Positions 50,307-59,720 of a stretch of DNA of 64,000 nt are shown here, piece after piece. The stretch covers positions 2,080,001 through 2,144,000 of the forward strand of contig OY764216.1 of assembly GCA_963668315.1 (NCBI GenBank). Reading direction: 5' to 3'. The notes beneath the pieces were generated by a model. That model had not been told where the DNA came from and did not search any database. It saw nothing but the letters and a program-made list of their open reading frames with translations. A program made the translations under genes and the position numbers. Each line of letters opens with the position of its first letter. The stretch's first letter is position 1. Source of the stretch: Spirochaetia bacterium (GTDB taxonomy: Bacteria > Spirochaetota > Spirochaetia > DSM-2461).

Positions 50307-53300
50307 ATGGGGACCACTGAAAAGGGCGATCTGTTCCGTACTCTTCTGAAGGAGAAAATCCTTTTTCTCGACGGAGCGATGGGAACGATGATCCAGACTT
50401 ACGGACTGACCGAAGAGGATTTTCGCGGAGACCGTTTCGCCGGCCATCCCAAGCTTCTCAAGGGCAACAACGATATTCTCAACCTGACCCGCCCCGATGT
50501 CATACGGGAAATCCATGAAGCATTTCTGGAAGCGGGGGCCCACATTATTGAAACCAATACTTTTAATGGAACCTGCTACTCCCAGGAGGAGTACGGGACC
50601 GCCGAATATGCCTATGAGATAAACCGCACCGCCGCCGAAAACGCCCGTAAGGCCTGCGATAAATTCGATACGCCCGACTATCCCCGATTTGTGGCGGGAA
50701 GTCTGGGGCCCACGGGCAAAACCCTTTCCATCTCGCCGAAAATCGAAGATCCCGGCTACAGGGACATCGACTTTGACGGACTGGCCGCCGCTTACACAGA
50801 AGCGATCCGCGGCCTTGTGGACGGAGGGGCGGATATTCTGATAGTGGAGACGATCTTCGACACTCTTAACTCCAAGGCCGCTATCTATGCTGTCAGAAAC
50901 TACTTTGCCGAAACGGGGACGGAACTGCCCCTTATGATCTCCGGAACGATTACCGACGAGAGCGGCCGGACCCTCTCCGGTTCCACCGCCGAGGCTTTCT
51001 GGTACTCCGTTTCCCATGGCGAACCGGTTTCGGTGGGGTTCAACTGCGCCCTGGGGGCCGATAAAATGGGCCGCCATGTGGCTACTGTCTCAGCCATTGC
51101 CGACTGCGCCGTTTCGGCCTATCCCAATGCGGGGCTTCCCAATGAACTGGGAGAGTACGACGACTCCCCCGAGCTTATGGCCGAAGTTCTGGCAGGTTAT
51201 GCCGAGGCGGGCCATCTGAATCTGGTGGGGGGGTGCTGCGGAACGACTCCGGAGCATCTCAAGGCTATCGTGGAGAGAATCCGGGATATCGCACCCCGGA
51301 AAATCCCCCCGAAAAGGCCCGTCTCCACCTACTCGGGTATCGACCCTCTTGTCCTGGATGAGAACAGTCTTTTCCAGAATGTGGGAGAGAGGACGAATGT
51401 GGCGGGAAGCCGCAAATTCGCCCGCCTTATAAGGGAGAAACAGTACGAGGAGGCTCTGGAAATCGCCCGCCGGCAGGTGGACAACGGGGCCACCATTATC
51501 GATGTGAATCTGGATGACGCCCTTCTGGAATCGGAAGAGGAGATGGCCCGGTTCATAAACCTTATCGCTTCCGAACCGGAGATCAGCCGTGTTCCCATCA
51601 TGGTGGATTCCTCCAAATGGTCCGTTATTGAAGCGGGCCTGAAGAGGATACAGGGTAAATCGATTGTCAATTCCATCAGCCTTAAGGAGGGGGAAGAGGC
51701 ATTTCTGGAAAAGGCCGCTAAAATCAGACTGTACGGCGCCGCCGCCGTTATCATGGCCTTTGATGAGACCGGACAGGCCGATAGTCTGGAAAGAAAGCTC
51801 CAAATCTGCCGCCGTTCCTATAATCTTTTGACGGAAAACGGATTTCCCCCCGAGGACATCATCTTCGATGTTAACGTTTTTGCCGTGGCCACCGGAATCG
51901 CCGAACACAGAAATTACGGGGTGGATTTCATCGAAGCGGTGAGAATACTCAAGAAGCAATATCCCCTCTGCCGGTTTTCCGGCGGTATCAGCAATGTATC
52001 TTTCTCATTCAGGGGTAACGATCCCGTGAGGGAGGCAATGCACTCCGTATTTCTTTACCATGCCATTCAGGCCGGTCTGGATATGGGTATCGTCAATGCC
52101 GGGCAGCTGGCGGTTTACGATGAACTGGATCCGGAGCTCCGGGAACTGGCCGAAGATGTGATCCTGAACCGGAACGGCGGAGTTGAAGGTGACGAGGCGG
52201 AGGAGAAACTTCTGGAAGCGGCTCCCCGTTTTGCCGGTCAGGGGTCTTCCCAGAACGGCGATCAGGGAAAGGATGAAGCCTGGAGGCAGGAAGAACCGGA
52301 AGAACGTCTCAAACACTCCCTGGTCAAGGGAATTACCACCTACCTCGAAGAGGACTTGAAGGAAATCGGCCGGAATCTGGCGGCCCTGGAAATCATCGAG
52401 GGCCCCCTCATGGCCGGTATGAACCGGGTGGGCGACCTGTTCGGCGCGGGGAAAATGTTCCTGCCCCAGGTCGTGAAGAGCGCCCGTGTCATAAAGAAAG
52501 CCGTCGCCATTCTGGAACCGGAACTGGAGGAAGGGAAAACCGGTTCTACCGGTCGGGGAAAAATTACTCTGGCCACGGTTAAAGGCGATGTTCACGATAT
52601 CGGAAAGAATATTGTCGGCCTTGTACTGCAGTGCAACGGCTATGACGTGGACGATCTGGGAGTTATGGTTCCGGGAGAGGATATTCTGGACCATGCCCGG
52701 AAAACCGGTGCCAAAGCTGTCTGTCTTTCCGGGCTGATTACCCCCTCCCTCGATGAAATGGTTTACGTCGCCGGGCTTATGGATAAGCGTGGCATGGAAG
52801 TTCCCCTCTTTGTGGGAGGCGCCACGACCAGCAAGAAGCATACAGCCCTGAAAATCGCCCCGGCCAGAAAAGGTCCGGTATATCATACCAATGACGCTTC
52901 CCAGATTATCCAGGTCATGAATGATGCCCTGAATCCGGATAAAAAAGACGCCCTGAGGAAGGAAACGGAGGAAAACTATGAAAAACTCCGGACCTTGACG
53001 GCGGAAACCAGACAGAAGGCTCCCCGGTTTACGGTGGAAGAGGCAAGAAAGCGGAAGCCCCGGCTGAACTGGGATGGCTATAAGCCGATTCCCCGGGAAT
53101 CCTGGGTCGGATCTGTTCCCATTGAAGAATTGATTCCCCTTATCGACTGGAAGTTTTTCTTTGTGGCCTGGCAGATGAAAAAGAATACCCCCCAGGCGGA
53201 AAAGGATGCCCTGAAAAAAGAGGCCATGGAGATGCTCGGAGAGCTGTCCGAGAGGAAGGATTATAAGATCCGAGCCGCCTGTTCCTGGTTTCATGCCCAT

Positions 53301-53768
53301 TCGGACGGGAAGGAATCGATTATATCCGCCGGAGAGACCTGGGTCTTTCCCCGTCAGAACAAGGGAGAAATATGCCGCTGTCTGGCCGATTATGTCTGCC
53401 CCGCCCCCGGAGAGGATCTGATGGGCTATTTCGCCTCCACGGCGAAAGGGTCAAAGGCTTTGATCGACGCGGCCCGGGAGGATGATGACGATTACCGTTC
53501 TTTTATGATCGCCGCCCTTTCCGACCGGCTGGCTGAAGCGGCCGCCGAATGGCTTCACCGCAAATTTGCCGATAATAAGGGCATTCGTCCGGCTCCCGGT
53601 TATCCCAGCTGTCCCGACCATGCCCAGAAAGAGGGGATTCTGGCGCTCCTGGATGACGGCGCCCTGGGAATTGAACTCACCGAGCACTATATGATGCAGC
53701 CCGCATCGTCGGTTTGCGGTTTTATCATTCCCCATCCCGAGGCGGATTATTTCGTCGTGCTGGACTAG
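50307..53768 (+). CDS. metH: Cobalamin-dependent methionine synthase
   Basis: [57 protein letters not shown]. Confidence 0.97.
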
Positions 53769-53770
53769 CA

Positions 53771-54253
53771 GTGGAGGGCGGAGAGATCAGGGCGGCTTTC
53801 GATCGGCTCGATGAGGCCGTCATTGACGCCTGTTCCATCATCTACCTATTGAAGACCGGCGTATTCGAAAGTCTGGGAGCCATTCTCAAACTGGATACGA
53901 CGGGAGATGTCTACCGAGAGACCGGCTGGCCGCTGAAGGACGGCCGGCCCCGTCTCCCTCTGACCCTCTTTCCCTCCTCTGAAATGGCCCGCTCCAACGA
54001 TCATGGGCTTTTTCTACTGGCAAAAAGCCGATCCCTTCCTCTCATTTCCGAAGATAAGGAAGTTCTGGAAATGGCCGCCGGTGAGGGACTGCCCTATTAT
54101 AACAGCCTTATGATGCTTCTCTTTCTGCTTTACAAGGGAAGAATTACTCAAGGGGACTACGAAGAGTATAAAATACGCCTATTGGGAGAAGCCCGTTACG
54201 GAGAGAGTATTATCAAGAGGGGAGAAGAGTACTACCGCGACCTTTTTCTCTAG
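53771..54253 (+). CDS. PIN-like domain protein
   Basis: VIDACSII, VYRE, SND and LISED give the acidic PIN pattern. Confidence 0.6.
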   Translation: MEGGEIRAAFDRLDEAVIDACSIIYLLKTGVFESLGAILKLDTTGDVYRETGWPLKDGRPRLPLTLFPSSEMARSNDHGLFLLAKSRSLPLISEDKEVLEMAAGEGLPYYNSLMMLLFLLYKGRITQGDYEEYKIRLLGEARYGESIIKRGEEYYRDLFL

Positions 54254-54268
54254 GAGTGTAAGAGAGAA

Positions 54269-54294
54269 ACCACGAATTACACGATTTTCACGAA
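54269..54294 (+). repeat. 9-bp-period CACGA(A) repeat, left arm of a degenerate inverted repeat
   Basis: ACCACGAATTACACGATTTTCACGAA; 18/26 identical to the reverse complement of 55663-55688. Confidence 0.5.
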
Positions 54295-54303
54295 AAATTG
54301 GAG

Positions 54304-55526
54304 TTATGCAGAATTAAGAAAAATATATATAGTGTCAAATGATACGTCACTTCTATTTTTAATTTAGATTAGTTATATATATGTAATGTAAAGAGATAAT
54401 ATAATAATGGTAAGAGAATTGGGCTAGACATTTGATATTAAAATATATTATTTATAGAAGTCGTAAAACAACCAAAATCTCATAAGAGATAATACTAAAA
54501 ATTAAAGGACTTGATATGAGATTTAAATTTACTTTATTCATTATATTTTCATTGTTACTATTTGGTTGTACTACAAAACAACCTGTGAATGGATGGGAAG
54601 AATATTTTTGTAACATGAATTACGTGAATAATATCTATCTGGGAATTTTATTAAATAATTCAACAATAAATAATGGTAACGATTACTCTATCTATTTTGA
54701 ATTTGATTCAGATATGATAGAAGAACTAGAAATGAAGTATCATATTAATAAAATTGCTGGAAGTGGTAGTGATTTTGATAAAGCATTAAGAATAATGCAT
54801 GAATTTGCACCCAGATTAGCTCATGGTAGTACGTTTGATAATCATATAGATTTCAATTCTCTTTCTATACTTGATTATAGTTTGGACAAACCTAAAAATG
54901 GGATAAATTGTTTGAACAAGTCTAAAATCCTAATGGAATTATGTTTAAGTCAGGATATTTACGCAAGAAAAGTATCTCTTTATCCATATAATCCAATAGA
55001 TGAAGATAATCATGTCGTTGTAGAGATTTATTCAAATGAATTAGAAAAATGGATTATGCTAGATCCTTCCAGTAATACTTATTGTCAAAATAAAAATGGG
55101 GATCCAATGTCACTATTGGAGATTAGAGATAATTTAATATCAAAGTTACCTTTTACAATAATATCTCAGGAACAAATTGATGATCCAATTTATCTTGAAA
55201 CCTATCTTACTAAAAATTTAATCTTCTTAGTTTATGATTCTATAAATGGTTTTGGAAATAATAATGATAATATCCGATATTATTTATTACCTCAAAATTT
55301 TGATATAAATAAATGGTATAATACTAAATATCCTGATAGAAAAGAATATTATGAGAATAATATTTTTAAATTGATTAGTATAGATTCAATAACCAAAAGC
55401 CCGATCGCACTAAATAATTAATGAATGCATAACAATGTTTTGCTACTGTCAATTTTTCTGTCACTCATTTTGTTTACACAAAATAAGCGCCAGCCCTTCG
55501 GGACAAAATTGCAGCAGAAAACGGCG
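54304..55526 (+). mobile_element. Solitary integron-type gene cassette (no integrase in window)
   Basis: Begins G|TTATGC (54303-54309), carries one AT-rich ORF, and ends in an attC whose R'' GCATAAC is complementary to the start. Confidence 0.75.
54516..55421 (+). CDS. Transglutaminase-like (Cys-His-Asp) lipoprotein, cassette-borne
   Basis: Lipobox LFGC; INCLNKS, NHVVVEIY, WIMLDPS; very AT-rich. Confidence 0.85.
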   Translation: MRFKFTLFIIFSLLLFGCTTKQPVNGWEEYFCNMNYVNNIYLGILLNNSTINNGNDYSIYFEFDSDMIEELEMKYHINKIAGSGSDFDKALRIMHEFAPRLAHGSTFDNHIDFNSLSILDYSLDKPKNGINCLNKSKILMELCLSQDIYARKVSLYPYNPIDEDNHVVVEIYSNELEKWIMLDPSSNTYCQNKNGDPMSLLEIRDNLISKLPFTIISQEQIDDPIYLETYLTKNLIFLVYDSINGFGNNNDNIRYYLLPQNFDINKWYNTKYPDRKEYYENNIFKLISIDSITKSPIALNN

Positions 55527-55532
55527 ATAAAC
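55427..55532 (+). other. attC recombination site
   Basis: R'' GCATAAC-5nt-L'' TTTGCTAC ... L' GCAGAAA-5nt-G|ATAAAC; long imperfect palindrome with two unpaired bases. Confidence 0.75.
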
Positions 55533-55662
55533 TGATTTTAAGTTTTCTATTTTAGTGAGAATTCCTATTCAATTATAAGCTTTAATAAAAGAAAGAGTCT
55601 CCACTAACTTATAGAAGAGAACAGCGTGAGCCCAAACAGGCTTTAATGAACCACAAAAGCTT

Positions 55663-55688
55663 TTCGCTTTATTCGTGCATTTCTTGGT
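55663..55688 (-). repeat. Right arm of the degenerate inverted repeat
   Basis: Reverse complement ACCAAGAAATGCACGAATAAAGCGAA. Confidence 0.45.
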
Positions 55689-55691
55689 CAT

Positions 55692-55723
55692 AAAAAAAGC
55701 CCCCCGGCCGCAACCGGAGGGCT
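55692..55723 (-). terminator. Rho-independent terminator of ilvN-ilvB
   Basis: Minus strand AGCCCTCCGG-ttgcgg-CCGGGGGGCT followed by a T run. Confidence 0.85.
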
Positions 55724-55731
55724 CTCTGGAT

Positions 55732-57405
55732 TTATTCGTCCACCTCGTCACCTACGACAAGTTCATCGAGGGCGGCTCCCGGGGGAACCATGGGGAATAC
55801 CTTGTTGTCCGTGGGGATTTCGCAGTCCACGATAACCGGCCGGCCGGCCGCAAAGGCTTCCTTGAGAACGGGAGTCGGGTCCTCATTCGCCCCTATGCGA
55901 AGGCCCTTGGCACCGAAAGCCTCGGCGAGTTTCACCCAGTCGATGGCATAATTCAAATCGGTGGATGAGTAGCGGTTTTCGTAGAACAGAGTCTGCCACT
56001 GGCGTACCATCCCCAGGGTTTTATTGTTCATCAGAAGAATGACCAGGGGGAGTTTGTTCTGAACGGCCGTGCTCATTTCCTGGCAGTTCATGCGGAAGCT
56101 TCCGTCTCCCGCCACATTGACGACCTGTCTGTCCGGGCAGGCGAAACAGGCGCCGATAGCCGCTCCCGTTCCGTAACCCATGGTACCCAGGCCGCCCGAA
56201 GTCAGGAAGGAGTAGGGTTTCTTGAAACCGTAGAACTGGGCGGCCCACATCTGGTGCTGACCTACCTCTGTGGCCACGATGGCGTTTCCTCCGGTTACTT
56301 CCGTCAGGGCATCGAGTATCTCCTTGGGCCTTTTGCTCTGAGGCGCCCGGCTGACGGGATTCATTTTTTTGAGTTCCACAATTTCTTCCATCCATTTGGG
56401 GTGCTTCTTCTCGCCGACTCTTTTGATCAGTTCCTCCAGGGCCGGTTTCATATGGCTGATGATGCAGTGATCGGTGGGGACGTTCTTGTTGATCTCCGCC
56501 GGATCAATATCGATATGGAGGATTCTCTTGTTCTCATGGAAACCTTCGGTTTTTCCCACGACACGGTCGGAGAAGCGGGCTCCCAGTACAATCAGGAGGT
56601 CGCAGTTTTTCATGGCCAGGTTGGATGCCTTGGAGCCGTGCATTCCGATCATACCCGTATTGTGGATGTCTTCCTTATCCATGCAGTCCATGGCCATGAG
56701 ACTCAATCCCAGGCAGGCGTCGATTTTCTTGACCAGAGTGCTCAGTTCATTGGCCGCCTTGCCCAGGGTGACACCTCCGCCGGCGTAGATATAGGGGCGC
56801 TGGGCATCCATAATCATATCCACGGCTCTGTCCCAGTCCTCTTCGGTCGCCTGGGGTTTGGGAATGACGATAGGTTCCGGTTCCTTAAATTCATAGTCAG
56901 TCTTTTCGGTGGTGATATTTTTCGGAATATCGATGAGTACGGGTCCGGGACGTCCGGAAGCGGCAATGATAAAGGCTTCCCTGATGGTATCGGCCAGTTT
57001 CTCGACATCGGTTACCATGTAGTTATGCTTGGTAACGGGCATGGTAATTCCCAGAATATCCACTTCCTGGAAGCTGTCCTTTCCCAGAAGATTCATGGGA
57101 GTGTTTCCCGTAATGGCCACCATGGGGATGGAATCCATGTAGGCTGTGGCGATTCCCGTTACCAGGTTGGTGGCGCCGGGACCGGATGTGGCCATACAGA
57201 CGCCGACTCGGCCGCTTGCCCGGGCATATCCGTCGGCGGCATGGGCGGCTCCCTGCTCGTGGGCTGTCAGAATGTGATTGATCTTTCCGTCTTTGAAAAG
57301 AGCGTCATATATATTGAGAACCGCTCCGCCGGGAAAGCCGAATATGGTATCAACCTTCTGTTCCTTAAGACATTCTATAATAATTTCTGCACCTGATAAT
57401 TTCAT
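55732..57405 (-). CDS. ilvB: Acetolactate synthase large subunit
   Basis: HEQGAAHAADGYAR, TSGPGATN, GGLGTMGYG, GDGSF, LGMVRQWQ. Confidence 0.96.
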   Translation of the reverse strand: MKLSGAEIIIECLKEQKVDTIFGFPGGAVLNIYDALFKDGKINHILTAHEQGAAHAADGYARASGRVGVCMATSGPGATNLVTGIATAYMDSIPMVAITGNTPMNLLGKDSFQEVDILGITMPVTKHNYMVTDVEKLADTIREAFIIAASGRPGPVLIDIPKNITTEKTDYEFKEPEPIVIPKPQATEEDWDRAVDMIMDAQRPYIYAGGGVTLGKAANELSTLVKKIDACLGLSLMAMDCMDKEDIHNTGMIGMHGSKASNLAMKNCDLLIVLGARFSDRVVGKTEGFHENKRILHIDIDPAEINKNVPTDHCIISHMKPALEELIKRVGEKKHPKWMEEIVELKKMNPVSRAPQSKRPKEILDALTEVTGGNAIVATEVGQHQMWAAQFYGFKKPYSFLTSGGLGTMGYGTGAAIGACFACPDRQVVNVAGDGSFRMNCQEMSTAVQNKLPLVILLMNNKTLGMVRQWQTLFYENRYSSTDLNYAIDWVKLAEAFGAKGLRIGANEDPTPVLKEAFAAGRPVIVDCEIPTDNKVFPMVPPGAALDELVVGDEVDE

Positions 57406-57447
57406 TTTATGCTCCTTGTAGTTTCAGCGGGATGACCCGCCATGCCC

Positions 57448-57993
57448 TCAGGCATTGATTTCGCCTTCCAATACGGCCTGTTCCGCATGTTCTTTCATAT
57501 CTATAAGGGAGTGGTCTCCCCGGGCAATACCGGTAATACCGGTCTGAACGATCTCTTTGATTCCGAAGCTGCTCAGTTTTCTCTGAAGCCCTTCCAGTTT
57601 GGCCGTGTCTCCCACGGCTTCTATCGTAATGGATTCTCCGGCCACATCAACGACTTTCGCCTTGAAGAGTTCGGTGATCTCCCTGATTGTCGCCAGATCT
57701 TTACCTACCGTATTCACCTTTATGAACATCAGCTGTCTGATTATGGCATCTTCCGGATTCAGAACTTCTATGTGCTTGACATCGATAAGTTTGTCCAGCT
57801 GTTTGCCGATCTGTTCAAAGACGGCGTGGGAGCCGCTGGCTACGATGGTCATGCGGGAAAACTCCGGATCTTCGGTGACACCTACGGTCAGGCTGTCTAT
57901 GTTATACCCTCTGCGGGCGAATAGACCGGCCACGCGGGTGAGGACGCCGAAGTGATTATTCACTAATACAGAAAAAACACGTTTTTCATTCAT
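57448..57993 (-). CDS. ilvN: Acetolactate synthase small subunit
   Basis: NNHFGVLTRVAGLFARRGYNIDSL ACT domain; AGGAGG SD before the ATG at 57993. Confidence 0.95.
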   Translation of the reverse strand: MNEKRVFSVLVNNHFGVLTRVAGLFARRGYNIDSLTVGVTEDPEFSRMTIVASGSHAVFEQIGKQLDKLIDVKHIEVLNPEDAIIRQLMFIKVNTVGKDLATIREITELFKAKVVDVAGESITIEAVGDTAKLEGLQRKLSSFGIKEIVQTGITGIARGDHSLIDMKEHAEQAVLEGEINA

Positions 57994-58153
57994 CTTATTC
58001 CTCCTGTGCGGCTTGACCACACGGTTTTTAATATTTAAGCGTTTATAACGCTTTCTTAACAGGTCAACGTTATATCTCAAGTATAAACGTATCCCTGATA
58101 CGGGGCTGAGTTAATGTCGCAATTCTTTTAATTTGTTGAATTAAAAGCCGCGA

Positions 58154-58342
58154 CTAGCTAATGACGACTAGTAGGACGGAAAAAATGACGACGGATAGGA
58201 CGACGACGTCGGATAGGACAGATAGGGAGGGGGGGGTGAGGTGGTTGCTTGCTTTCTTAGTGCTGAAGCTCGAGGCTCCGGCGGTAAATCTGCCTGATCC
58301 CTGAGGGGAAAAACAGATCCCTTTCCATGACATTCCGGTCAT
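58154..58342 (-). CDS. Putative ilv leader peptide (62 aa, Val/Leu/Ile-rich C-terminus)
   Basis: TAAGGAG SD 6 nt before the ATG; ends ...LSVLSDVVVLSVVIFSVLLVVIS; directly upstream of ilvN. Confidence 0.7.
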   Translation of the reverse strand: MTGMSWKGICFSPQGSGRFTAGASSFSTKKASNHLTPPSLSVLSDVVVLSVVIFSVLLVVIS

Positions 58343-58373
58343 TCTAAACTCCTTAGGTAGGATATATCTTCCT

Positions 58374-58402
58374 ATTAAAGGATAGATGGGGGTTGTTGTC
58401 AA
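58374..58402 (-). promoter_or_regulatory. Sigma70 promoter of the leader-ilvN-ilvB transcript
   Basis: Minus strand TTGACA-N17-TTTAAT. Confidence 0.7.
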
Positions 58403-58448
58403 GGGATAGTTGTATAATACTTTAAGAAAAGGAAGGAGATACAAGGAT

Positions 58449-59720
58449 ATGTGTATAAAGCGAACATCTCTATTTGTACCGTTTTTCTTTGTCTTTATAT
58501 TTTTATCAGCCCAGGAAAAAGCTTCCGTTGCCGTATTGGATACGGCCCTTCTGGACGGGGATATTCCCCGTAATGCCTCGATGGTGGCAGCCACATACCT
58601 GAACGATTCCTTCTCCGCTTCACCCGGGTATGCCCCTTTAGACCGTAGGCTTATCTATACACGCTGGAATAACAGCTCGCCGGGAGATATCAATATTGTC
58701 TCCCTTGTGCAGAGGGGTGAGTATGACAGGCTGGGCGGTCTTCTCGGAGCCGATTTTCTCTGTCTGTCCTCGCTCAAGCGCGACGGGGGCGGATATCTCC
58801 TGACCGCCGAGCTGTACGATATCTCTCAGGGAGGCGTCGTCTCCCGGGAAACCGCCCGCGCCGGACGTCTGGAAGAGCTTCTCAATGCGGGCCGACTGGC
58901 GGGAGCGAAACTCTCCGGAGCTTCTCCGGCGGCGCTTCCCGAACCGGCTCCTCCCCTGACGGCCGCCGTTCCCGCTCAGGCTCCCCCGGCGGGTGCGGCC
59001 TCTCCCGTGAAGGAAAAGGTGGCCGCCGAAACTCCGGCGGAAGATCCGCCGGCTCAGAATGCTTCAAATTCATTCGGTGAACAGGAACAGGGTTCAGATG
59101 CGCCCGAAAAGCCTTCCTCCGGACGGGCGGAACCCTTCGGCTCCCTGACGCTGAGCCTTCTCCTGCCGACCTTCGTGGGCAATGAGGAGTTTACCGTATC
59201 CTATGACGGTTGGGTCACCTACGAACAAACCCCCCTTTACGATCTTGGTTTCGGCGATGATCTGAATCTGGGAATGGACTTTAATTTACGATTTACCGGA
59301 ACATCCTATTTCTGCCTGGATCTGGGATTCTCCTTGGCCTCCCAGCTTCTTACCTACGAAACCTATGACTACTATTACGGTTACGAAGAGACCACTTCCA
59401 TGAGTTTCGGCCTTTTTGACTTCTACCTGGGCCTGGGGGCTGTCCTGCCTCTGACGGAGAACCTGCAGTTGGCCGGAGTGGGAACCATAGGATACGGAGT
59501 CCTTTTTCTGGGCGCCGATGTCTGGGATTCGGCAACCATTTCCAGTTTTGACGGATCGACGGGAGTCACTATGGGGATCACGGCGGGAATCGATTTCAAG
59601 ACGGCTTCCGGTCTTGTCCTGACGCTACGGTATCGATACTCCTATGCCCCCGAGCTTGATCCATTGGGGACGGATTTCGGATACCACGGTGTTCTGCTGG
59701 GATTAGGGACAGTCCTGTAA
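58449..59720 (+). CDS. Secreted protein: CsgG/TolB-N-like domain, Pro/Ala linker, beta-barrel-like C-domain
   Basis: Signal peptide; SVAVLD, LGGLLGADF, LTAELYDISQG; PEPAPP linker; Gly/aromatic strands. Confidence 0.65.
   Translation: MCIKRTSLFVPFFFVFIFLSAQEKASVAVLDTALLDGDIPRNASMVAATYLNDSFSASPGYAPLDRRLIYTRWNNSSPGDINIVSLVQRGEYDRLGGLLGADFLCLSSLKRDGGGYLLTAELYDISQGGVVSRETARAGRLEELLNAGRLAGAKLSGASPAALPEPAPPLTAAVPAQAPPAGAASPVKEKVAAETPAEDPPAQNASNSFGEQEQGSDAPEKPSSGRAEPFGSLTLSLLLPTFVGNEEFTVSYDGWVTYEQTPLYDLGFGDDLNLGMDFNLRFTGTSYFCLDLGFSLASQLLTYETYDYYYGYEETTSMSFGLFDFYLGLGAVLPLTENLQLAGVGTIGYGVLFLGADVWDSATISSFDGSTGVTMGITAGIDFKTASGLVLTLRYRYSYAPELDPLGTDFGYHGVLLGLGTVL

Follow-up and report, generated by a model that had tools for sequence, protein, structure and literature searches.

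IntI recombines the folded bottom strand of an attC site with double-stranded GWT sites (attG), which has been shown for IntI1-3 in E. coli and V. cholerae, and cassettes inserted at attG sites can be expressed from host promoters and excised (10.1101/2022.09.11.507474). The same paper (Loot et al.) counts 3,400 SALINs in 2,469 of 21,105 genomes, describes a CRGM hotspot motif at attG sites, and in its main text gives as natural single insertions only aadB on the plasmids RSF1010 and pRAY (10.1101/2022.09.11.507474). SALINs are thus counted in the thousands, and their origin by attG insertion is mostly deduced from laboratory assays with class 1-3 integrases. Among spirochaetes, the accessible portions of two papers report attC sites of more than 100 bp in T. 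succinifaciens and T. brennaborense (PMC3607928, PMC8352920), and one of them, in its accessible portion, shows that a Spirochaetes attC model exists in print (PMC8352920). In a literature search that covered few subscription papers, we found no paper on a single SALIN cassette with a known empty site and none on the extrahelical bases of spirochaete attC sites.

We use a window of 64,000 nucleotides, taken from a chromosome assembled as one 5.62-Mb contig with 51% G+C, to study how such a cassette sits outside its array. The features of the locus are collected in Table 1; positions without a prefix are those of the window, and positions in the source genome carry the prefix C1. Three FlaA genes score over cut-off in the host and none in 14 control genomes, and FlaA, a spirochaete marker, thereby suggests that the host is a spirochaete. 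A sequence-only reading of the window had proposed that an integrase acting in trans placed a solitary cassette at a G|AT site, and we consider this very probable: an integron integrase working away from its own locus recombined the folded bottom-strand attC of a single cassette with a chromosomal G|AT (attG) inside an intergenic two-arm repeat. Support comes from the structure of the attC site, the start of the cassette, a distant IntI, the relatives and both boundaries, and the cassette is a SALIN, likely one that was inserted at an attG site. In the proposed mechanism, a cassette circle carrying TGCATAAC...G|TTATGCA would be cut after the G and joined to host G|AT; the R' tail of the cassette would then mark the left junction, and the right one would read into host ATAAAC.

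Table 1. Features of the cassette locus and its surroundings, in window positions.
Feature	Position	Strand	Basis or detail
PIN-like gene next downstream of metH, GTG 53771 as likely start	53714..54253	+	ORF
Left arm of the ACCACGAA..CACGA two-arm repeat, in the host part of the landing site	54269..54296	+	
Left junction: G (host or shared), then TTATGCA start, complement of the cassette's own R''	54303..54310	+	
Gene cassette	54304..55526	+	1,224-letter deficit in X5 record 9; X6 record 20 covers 54399-55526
Cassette leader, 212 bp, 22% G+C, with AAGGA ribosome-binding-like motif at 54505-54509	54304..54515	+	
Cargo gene, 301 aa, transglutaminase-like (PF01841), Cys132-His166-Asp183	54516..55421	+	Pfam, alignment
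attC site	55427..55532	+	R'' 55427-55433, L'' 55439-55446, L' 55514-55520, R' G 55526 then host ATAAAC
Right junction G|AT, putative attG core (GWT)	55526..55535	+	X6 record 20 stops at 55526
Right host flank, 32% G+C, with facing repeat arm 55661-55688 (minus)	55527..55690	.	no ORF, no R'' partner
Terminator-like hairpin and U-tract behind ilvB	55692..55724	-	17/18 letters common to congener G001
ilvB, acetolactate synthase large subunit, convergent	55732..57405	-	TPP_enzyme_N/M/C domains

The cassette measures 1,223 bp and is the only one at the locus. GTTATGCA at 54303-54310 has its exact reverse complement, TGCATAAC, at 55426-55433, the start being complementary to the cassette's own R'' over 8 letters, and the ORF stop codon lies 5 nt before R''. 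Such an 8-mer seldom arises by chance: 16 of 2000 dinucleotide shuffles of 54254-55425 contain it, and 7 of 5000 when the intergenic sequence is shuffled; 54303 is the nearest upstream match of at least 7 letters to R'' and the only 8-letter match within 6 kb. Within the arrays of the same genome, 21 of the 27 cassettes that have a preceding attC match their own R'' over at least 9 letters, which leaves the match at 54303 one below the usual 9, and the A found at position 10 in 28 of 33 array cassette starts is also present here. A single ORF with an attC, a start that complements its own R'', ends shown by contigs and movement as a unit are the features of a cassette that we find at this locus. 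Its G+C is 22-25%, against 51% for the genome. We recomputed every one of the original coordinates, the complement, the 106-nt site, the G+C counts (10/60 in the AT-rich island, 34/60 outside it) and the G|ATAAAC junction, and all of them matched. The AT-rich island was to have begun with the cassette, and in this respect the reading needs correcting: the counts stand, but low G+C extends beyond both ends (32% at 55527-55690, 38% at 54254-54303), and this AT-rich flanking DNA is landing repeat, not cassette.

The site at the end of the ORF is a genuine attC. It is 106 nt long, it has the R''-5-L''(8)...L'(7)-5-R' geometry, and its R'' ends in AAC. The extra bases are G 55442 within L'' and T55449, the latter visible in the fold, and the arms carry one mismatch. 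Folding gives -21.0 kcal/mol for the bottom strand (z -4.2; equalled by none of 200 shuffles), with the unpaired bases and an unpaired central spacer present, and -13.3 kcal/mol for the top strand (z -1.3; equalled by 19 of 200 shuffles). If the R' tail of the cassette is restored, the R box becomes paired and the energy of the bottom strand drops to -27.6 kcal/mol. A covariance model built from sibling sites scores the site at 83.2 bits (E 1.5e-18), its only match in the 64-kb window, the training set containing two siblings 91-94% identical to it; it consists of 29 of the 38 genome sites and leaves out seven with truncated or mis-called ends, a 135-nt site and the site at 55427-55532 itself. 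The site thus scores as attC, not as the non-attC that would have spoken against the earlier reading. The family model shows compensatory changes in 18 of 29 pairs, and the covariance model recovers the family in 9 of the 10 relatives searched. Sequence identity is 91% and 94% to two sibling sites and 83% to one in the IntI array.

Two details of this site are unusual. First, its R' lacks the core GTT and reads GAT instead, the sole such case among the 36 readable sites of the genome; this is expected after attG insertion, and the TT tail is now found at 54304. Second, the extra base in L'' is a G on the top strand and a C on the bottom strand, which had been taken as a hint of a divergent attC type. 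The base is indeed unusual, but it is a trait of the lineage: the same holds in 31 of 31 genome sites examined (with the 7 of 38 that have truncated or mis-called ends omitted from the fold and arm counts), so we reject a divergent type peculiar to 55427-55532. Larouche and Roy (PMC3053210) report that A-N6-C attC sites (attCdfrA1 mutants and blaVIM-2) are excised well by IntI2*179E and SonIntIA and call C at that position rare among clinical cassettes, and Wu et al. (PMC3607928) mark a 'protruding G' in Treponema attC sites.

Now we consider where the integrase could come from. It had been said that no integrase lies nearby, and locally we find none: IntI is 1.0 Mb away and the nearest other attC 0.82 Mb. 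A search of the genome for intI and for sibling sites, as had been suggested, finds both. The integrase gene (C1:3134145-3135380) is intact, encodes 411 aa with no stop, scores 361 bits on TIGR02249 (cut-off 265) and is the one integron integrase among 14 tyrosine-recombinase matches in the genome; 13 attC matches, two of them truncated, follow it. An iterated profile search finds 38 attC-like matches in all: beside those 13 they lie in clusters at 3.31, 3.34, 4.55, 4.64, 4.87 and 5.02 Mb and as lone sites at 2.135 (this cassette), 2.959 and 3.438 Mb. Judged by sequence, the attC at 55427-55532 belongs to the family of the resident integron. IntI scores over cut-off in 24 of the 38 genomes of the taxonomic family. 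We think it somewhat more probable than otherwise that the resident IntI was the acting enzyme, failing which a related IntI present at that time would have acted.

The surroundings of the other attC sites hold several further observations. The lone site in C1:2957912-2959984 (site C1:2958985), 91% identical to 55427-55532, closes a cassette with an opposite-strand short-chain dehydrogenase gene and is followed by GTT and then by an AT-rich, PhzF-like gene. A second attC-like repeat of about 145 bp (TAACAG...AAAC|GTTA) has 17 same-strand matches between AT-rich genes at C1:5010731-5030541 and is also found at 3440241-3444445, at 4548840 and in the congener G001 (C32, L085); its bottom strand folds better in all three cases tried. 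The main run of this repeat starts divergently from a short, 266-aa tyrosine recombinase that falls short of the IntI cut-off. Enzyme and arrangement recur in G001, and the repeat looks like part of a second, integron-like cassette system. Five family attC sites (C1:3437805, 4547464, 5021655, 5025229 and L085:4408) have near-identical extended ends, with GATTCTATACAAC before them and, in three of the four genome sites and in L085, GTTGTATAGAAATC after them; a copy of the second repeat immediately precedes two of them, as though the site of one system had inserted in that of the other. Tyrosine recombinases of 440-460 aa with partner genes of 200-215 aa head attC-cluster islands at C1:3447090-3448469, 4647736-4649079 and 4859354-4860676, and the first cassettes of these islands start at non-array junctions (e.g. 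C1:4864575, 4646855). Directly before one recombinase island, the peptide FQSTPPRGER is repeated in ORF translations at C1:4856000-4858100 in a CRISPR-like pattern. A 287-aa recombinase at C1:4638252-4639115 (NF040815 over cut-off) starts directly after an attC, as if cassette-borne, and C1:5015855-5021534 holds three identical tandem copies of a 2,297-bp unit made of a transposase-like gene and a cassette. In several relatives, an element of one and the same kind starts right at R' (GTTGAGACTGTAGAAAA) at four loci (L086, L088, L090, L097), and at the first three of these an ORF that we take to be transposase-like follows, which suggests an attC-targeting insertion sequence. ORFs of 417-426 aa in one relative (G020; L093, L094), presumably reverse-transcriptase-like, lie on the opposite strand directly before attC sites with an unreadable R'', as with attC-targeting group II introns.

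The presence of other recombinases raises the question of whether IntI is the right enzyme. The same cassette could have been brought to the same site by one of the short tyrosine recombinases (C1:4638252 or C1:5010731), enzymes in which the IntI insertion is missing, or by a transposon-mediated move, and we give this a very small chance. Both short recombinases adjoin attC clusters and score 184-199 bits on TIGR02249, below its cut-off; the arrays are full of insertion sequences; and the congener G001 has four family attC sites with no IntI match. Against these points, G001 is a 50-contig draft, the position of the cut after the G is that of an IntI cut, a repeat family of another kind goes with the enzyme at C1:5010731, and the locus shows neither a transposase nor a target duplication. 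Insertion by an integron integrase is the reading that we keep.

At the right junction the cassette meets G|ATAAAC, and it matters whether this G|AT is host sequence or a damaged cassette end. Positions +6 to +9 after the junction read CTGA, a 3/4 match to CRGM, a motif defined for IntI1 only; 8-15% of local GWT sites do equally well, and we reject the match as strong evidence. GATAAAC is one letter off GTTRRRY (a 6/7 match) and has A at position 10 as cassette starts do. GAT on its own proves no attG insertion, because a genuine GTT-to-GAT change has occurred inside an array: one array site of the relative G007 has G|ATATGTGG, and GTTATGTGG is what the R'' of the next attC complements (32 sites of relatives were examined for the junction, two with unreadable ends, and one of the two GAT calls, L096, looks mis-placed). 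These observations, together with the 32% G+C of the flank and the GTT and further AT-rich gene that follow the lone site at C1:2958985, are what would be seen if several cassettes had arrived together, the second had decayed to 55527-55690 and its GTT had mutated to GAT. We nevertheless hold such a remnant of a small cassette cluster to be very unlikely. The locus at 54303 is set apart from the G007 case by its downstream DNA, which has no ORF and no R'' partner and persists in a cassette-free contig: 55527-55731 has no ATG-started ORF over 15 codons, no R'' partner is found as far as the end of the window, the cassette-free relative keeps 55587 onward at the expected length, and the flank continues a host repeat.

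This repeat, with ACCACGAA..CACGA arms, has 16 arm-like matches in the genome, several of them as facing pairs 106-140 bp apart, and one cluster of arms lies behind a GxxExxY gene (TIGR04256); our literature search, with few subscription papers covered, found no paper on GxxExxY-linked repeats. Intergenic facing pairs are also seen at C1:641439-641613, 1210345-1210468 and 2335015-2335452. When the cassette is removed, both flanks align continuously with the repeat copy at C1:2335015 (in a pairwise alignment only). For the right flank, 25 of 3000 AT-rich genomic controls are as good when the alignment is anchored, and 21 of 1000 shuffles and 20 of 1000 controls when it is not, so that continuity with this paralogue across the junction has a p of about 0.01-0.02; the cassette start aligned to the continuation of the paralogue scores 10, against 17 for the right flank. 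When the site was reconstituted without its cassette and used as an nhmmer query, no paralogue passed the threshold (best E 4.3), and a scan of the degenerate motif in two public collections gave 0 matches in each and no intact copy. What the locus shows in respect of attG is the GAT at the crossover, a cassette-free gap of 65 letters where 66 are expected, and the continuity with the paralogue; this continuity is moderate support for the G|AT at the junction being host DNA. It is tempting to go further and to regard GxxExxY-linked ACCACGAA two-arm repeats as preferred attG landing pads for spirochaete IntI, with the cassette still mobile and filled and empty alleles coexisting, in which case a resident chromosomal integron would seed genes into safe intergenic sites of its own chromosome. 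We consider this improbable. A target preference for the repeat is unsupported: no arm is found when 20 attC loci from relatives are examined, and within this genome the other 14 arm matches all lie away from attC sites.

The congeners do not have the cassette at this locus. The PIN-like gene is kept in 18 of the 38 family genomes and ilvB adjoins it in all three congeners, and between the two genes none of the three has an attC or the cargo: G001 has about 50 bp with the terminator only, and G002 and G003 have a GGDEF-motif gene. None of the three gives the exact empty site, all being without the host flanks of the window locus. No attC lies within 1.5 kb of any of the 17 other PIN-like ortholog loci, and cargo homologs are found in 0 of the 37 other genomes of the family. 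Vertical conservation of the gene, which would have told against the sequence-only reading, is not seen, and these comparisons support a cassette that was not inherited vertically at this locus.

The boundaries themselves are visible in sequencing contigs, which come from four of the seven listed runs; X5 and X7 are one sample and not independent of one another, and X1-X3, probably the source sample, are not independent support either. X5 record 9 (50,792 letters), from a relative 93-96% identical, aligns to 51500-54297 (194 differences) and to 55587-58500 (112 differences, 10 gaps). Between these pieces it has 65 letters where the window has 1,289, a deficit of 1,224, and removal of 54304-55526 from the window leaves 66; the 65 letters do not align at 85% to 55527-55586, and the fit is one of length only. 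A contig of a different study, X6 record 20, matches 54399-55526 with 13 differences in 1,128 (99%) and continues with 10 unmatched letters, and the flanking-gene pieces listed for the same run show 86-92% identity. X4 record 5 comes from a different sample that carries the same species label; it matches 54029-54302 with 0 differences and continues with 28 unmatched letters, and 114 letters at its opposite end are also unexplained among the matches listed. Its orientation is taken from X7 record 24, which has the same offset as X5 record 9. By the convention of the tool, an empty allele that shares the G would stop matching at 54302. In the X4 run, depth is about 13 to either side of the cassette but 0-4 per bin within it, and we leave holes in contig cover uncounted as evidence. 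The breakpoints in these contigs thus fall at 54302 and 55526, with the 1,224-letter deficit, and not at the other positions that would have contradicted the proposed insertion. Taken together, the three records support both boundaries of the cassette, with the junction of the empty allele deduced from length.

The direction of the event also has to be considered, since precise excision from attG sites has been shown experimentally (10.1101/2022.09.11.507474) and the match in length fits excision as well as insertion. An empty allele that arose by excision from an older attG insertion is in our judgement extremely unlikely. The X6 copy is 99% identical while the listed flanking pieces are 86-92% identical, which points to recent movement of the cassette, the cassette has 22-25% G+C in a genome of 51%, and excision would still require an earlier attG insertion. 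We retain insertion into an empty site.

What does the cassette carry? The cargo scores 24.8 bits on PF01841 (Pfam cut-off 23), and a protein atlas places it at a similarity of 0.96 to a PF01841 cluster. Its Cys-His-Asp triad (Table 1) is invariant in the 27 sequences aligned out of 66 homologs found, the closest of which is 48% identical. The protein also has a lipobox-like LLLFGC with Cys18, which we read as a lipobox and take to make the cargo a predicted lipoprotein. We predict a surface cysteine enzyme with a transglutaminase/papain-like fold. Neither the cargo nor the locus has a match in Rfam, PADLOC, NCBIfam or PDB, with no defence-system or solved-structure relative by sequence. Outside the family, 400 genomes of the class yield 3 distant homologs (31-33% identity), with no family attC within 1.5 kb, and a scan for the cargo in the genome contigs of a collection found nothing. 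The PIN-like gene upstream has no Pfam, NCBIfam or PADLOC match and was not found in a scan of metagenome contigs; its look-alikes in the atlas (0.90-0.94) carry PIN/DUF3368 in 12-29% of members, which is a lead only.

The leader of the cassette has 7 promoter-like matches where 10.6 are expected, so that a promoter of its own does not rise above chance. Because the cargo lies on the same strand as metH and the PIN-like gene, has no promoter above chance, has a ribosome-binding-like motif and stands upstream of the terminator-like hairpin (the only terminator seen at the locus), it is likely expressed by read-through from the metH / PIN-like transcript. As to its mobility, the R-box mismatch weakens the fold (-27.6 kcal/mol if the original tail is put back, -21.0 as the site stands) and would lower the efficiency of excision relative to the array.

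The locus reveals no new mechanism and is a natural example of a known route. It is an unusually complete one, with a cognate integrase and array on a finished chromosome, a cassette-free relative and a matching copy elsewhere, and it offers a ready pair of substrates for testing an environmental IntI against the GWT and CRGM rules, as well as a lead on how the enzyme handles sites that all carry C at the usual G position. In the terms available from PMC3053210, the bottom strand here is like the A-N6-C variants in having an unpaired A, six paired bases and an unpaired C, and it differs from the rare clinical C in that every site examined in one genome has it. Like the chromosomal integrons of Treponema, as far as the accessible text of PMC3607928 describes them, the system has attC sites of more than 100 bp; here the site lies outside the array. 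As in a SALIN, there is one CDS and one attC with no other att site or integrase nearby, a G|WT junction, a bottom-strand fold and a position behind a host transcript. Unlike the cases of Loot et al., this one is chromosomal and likely from a spirochaete, has its cognate IntI in the same genome, and is accompanied by a cassette-free relative and a second copy that ends at the same base.
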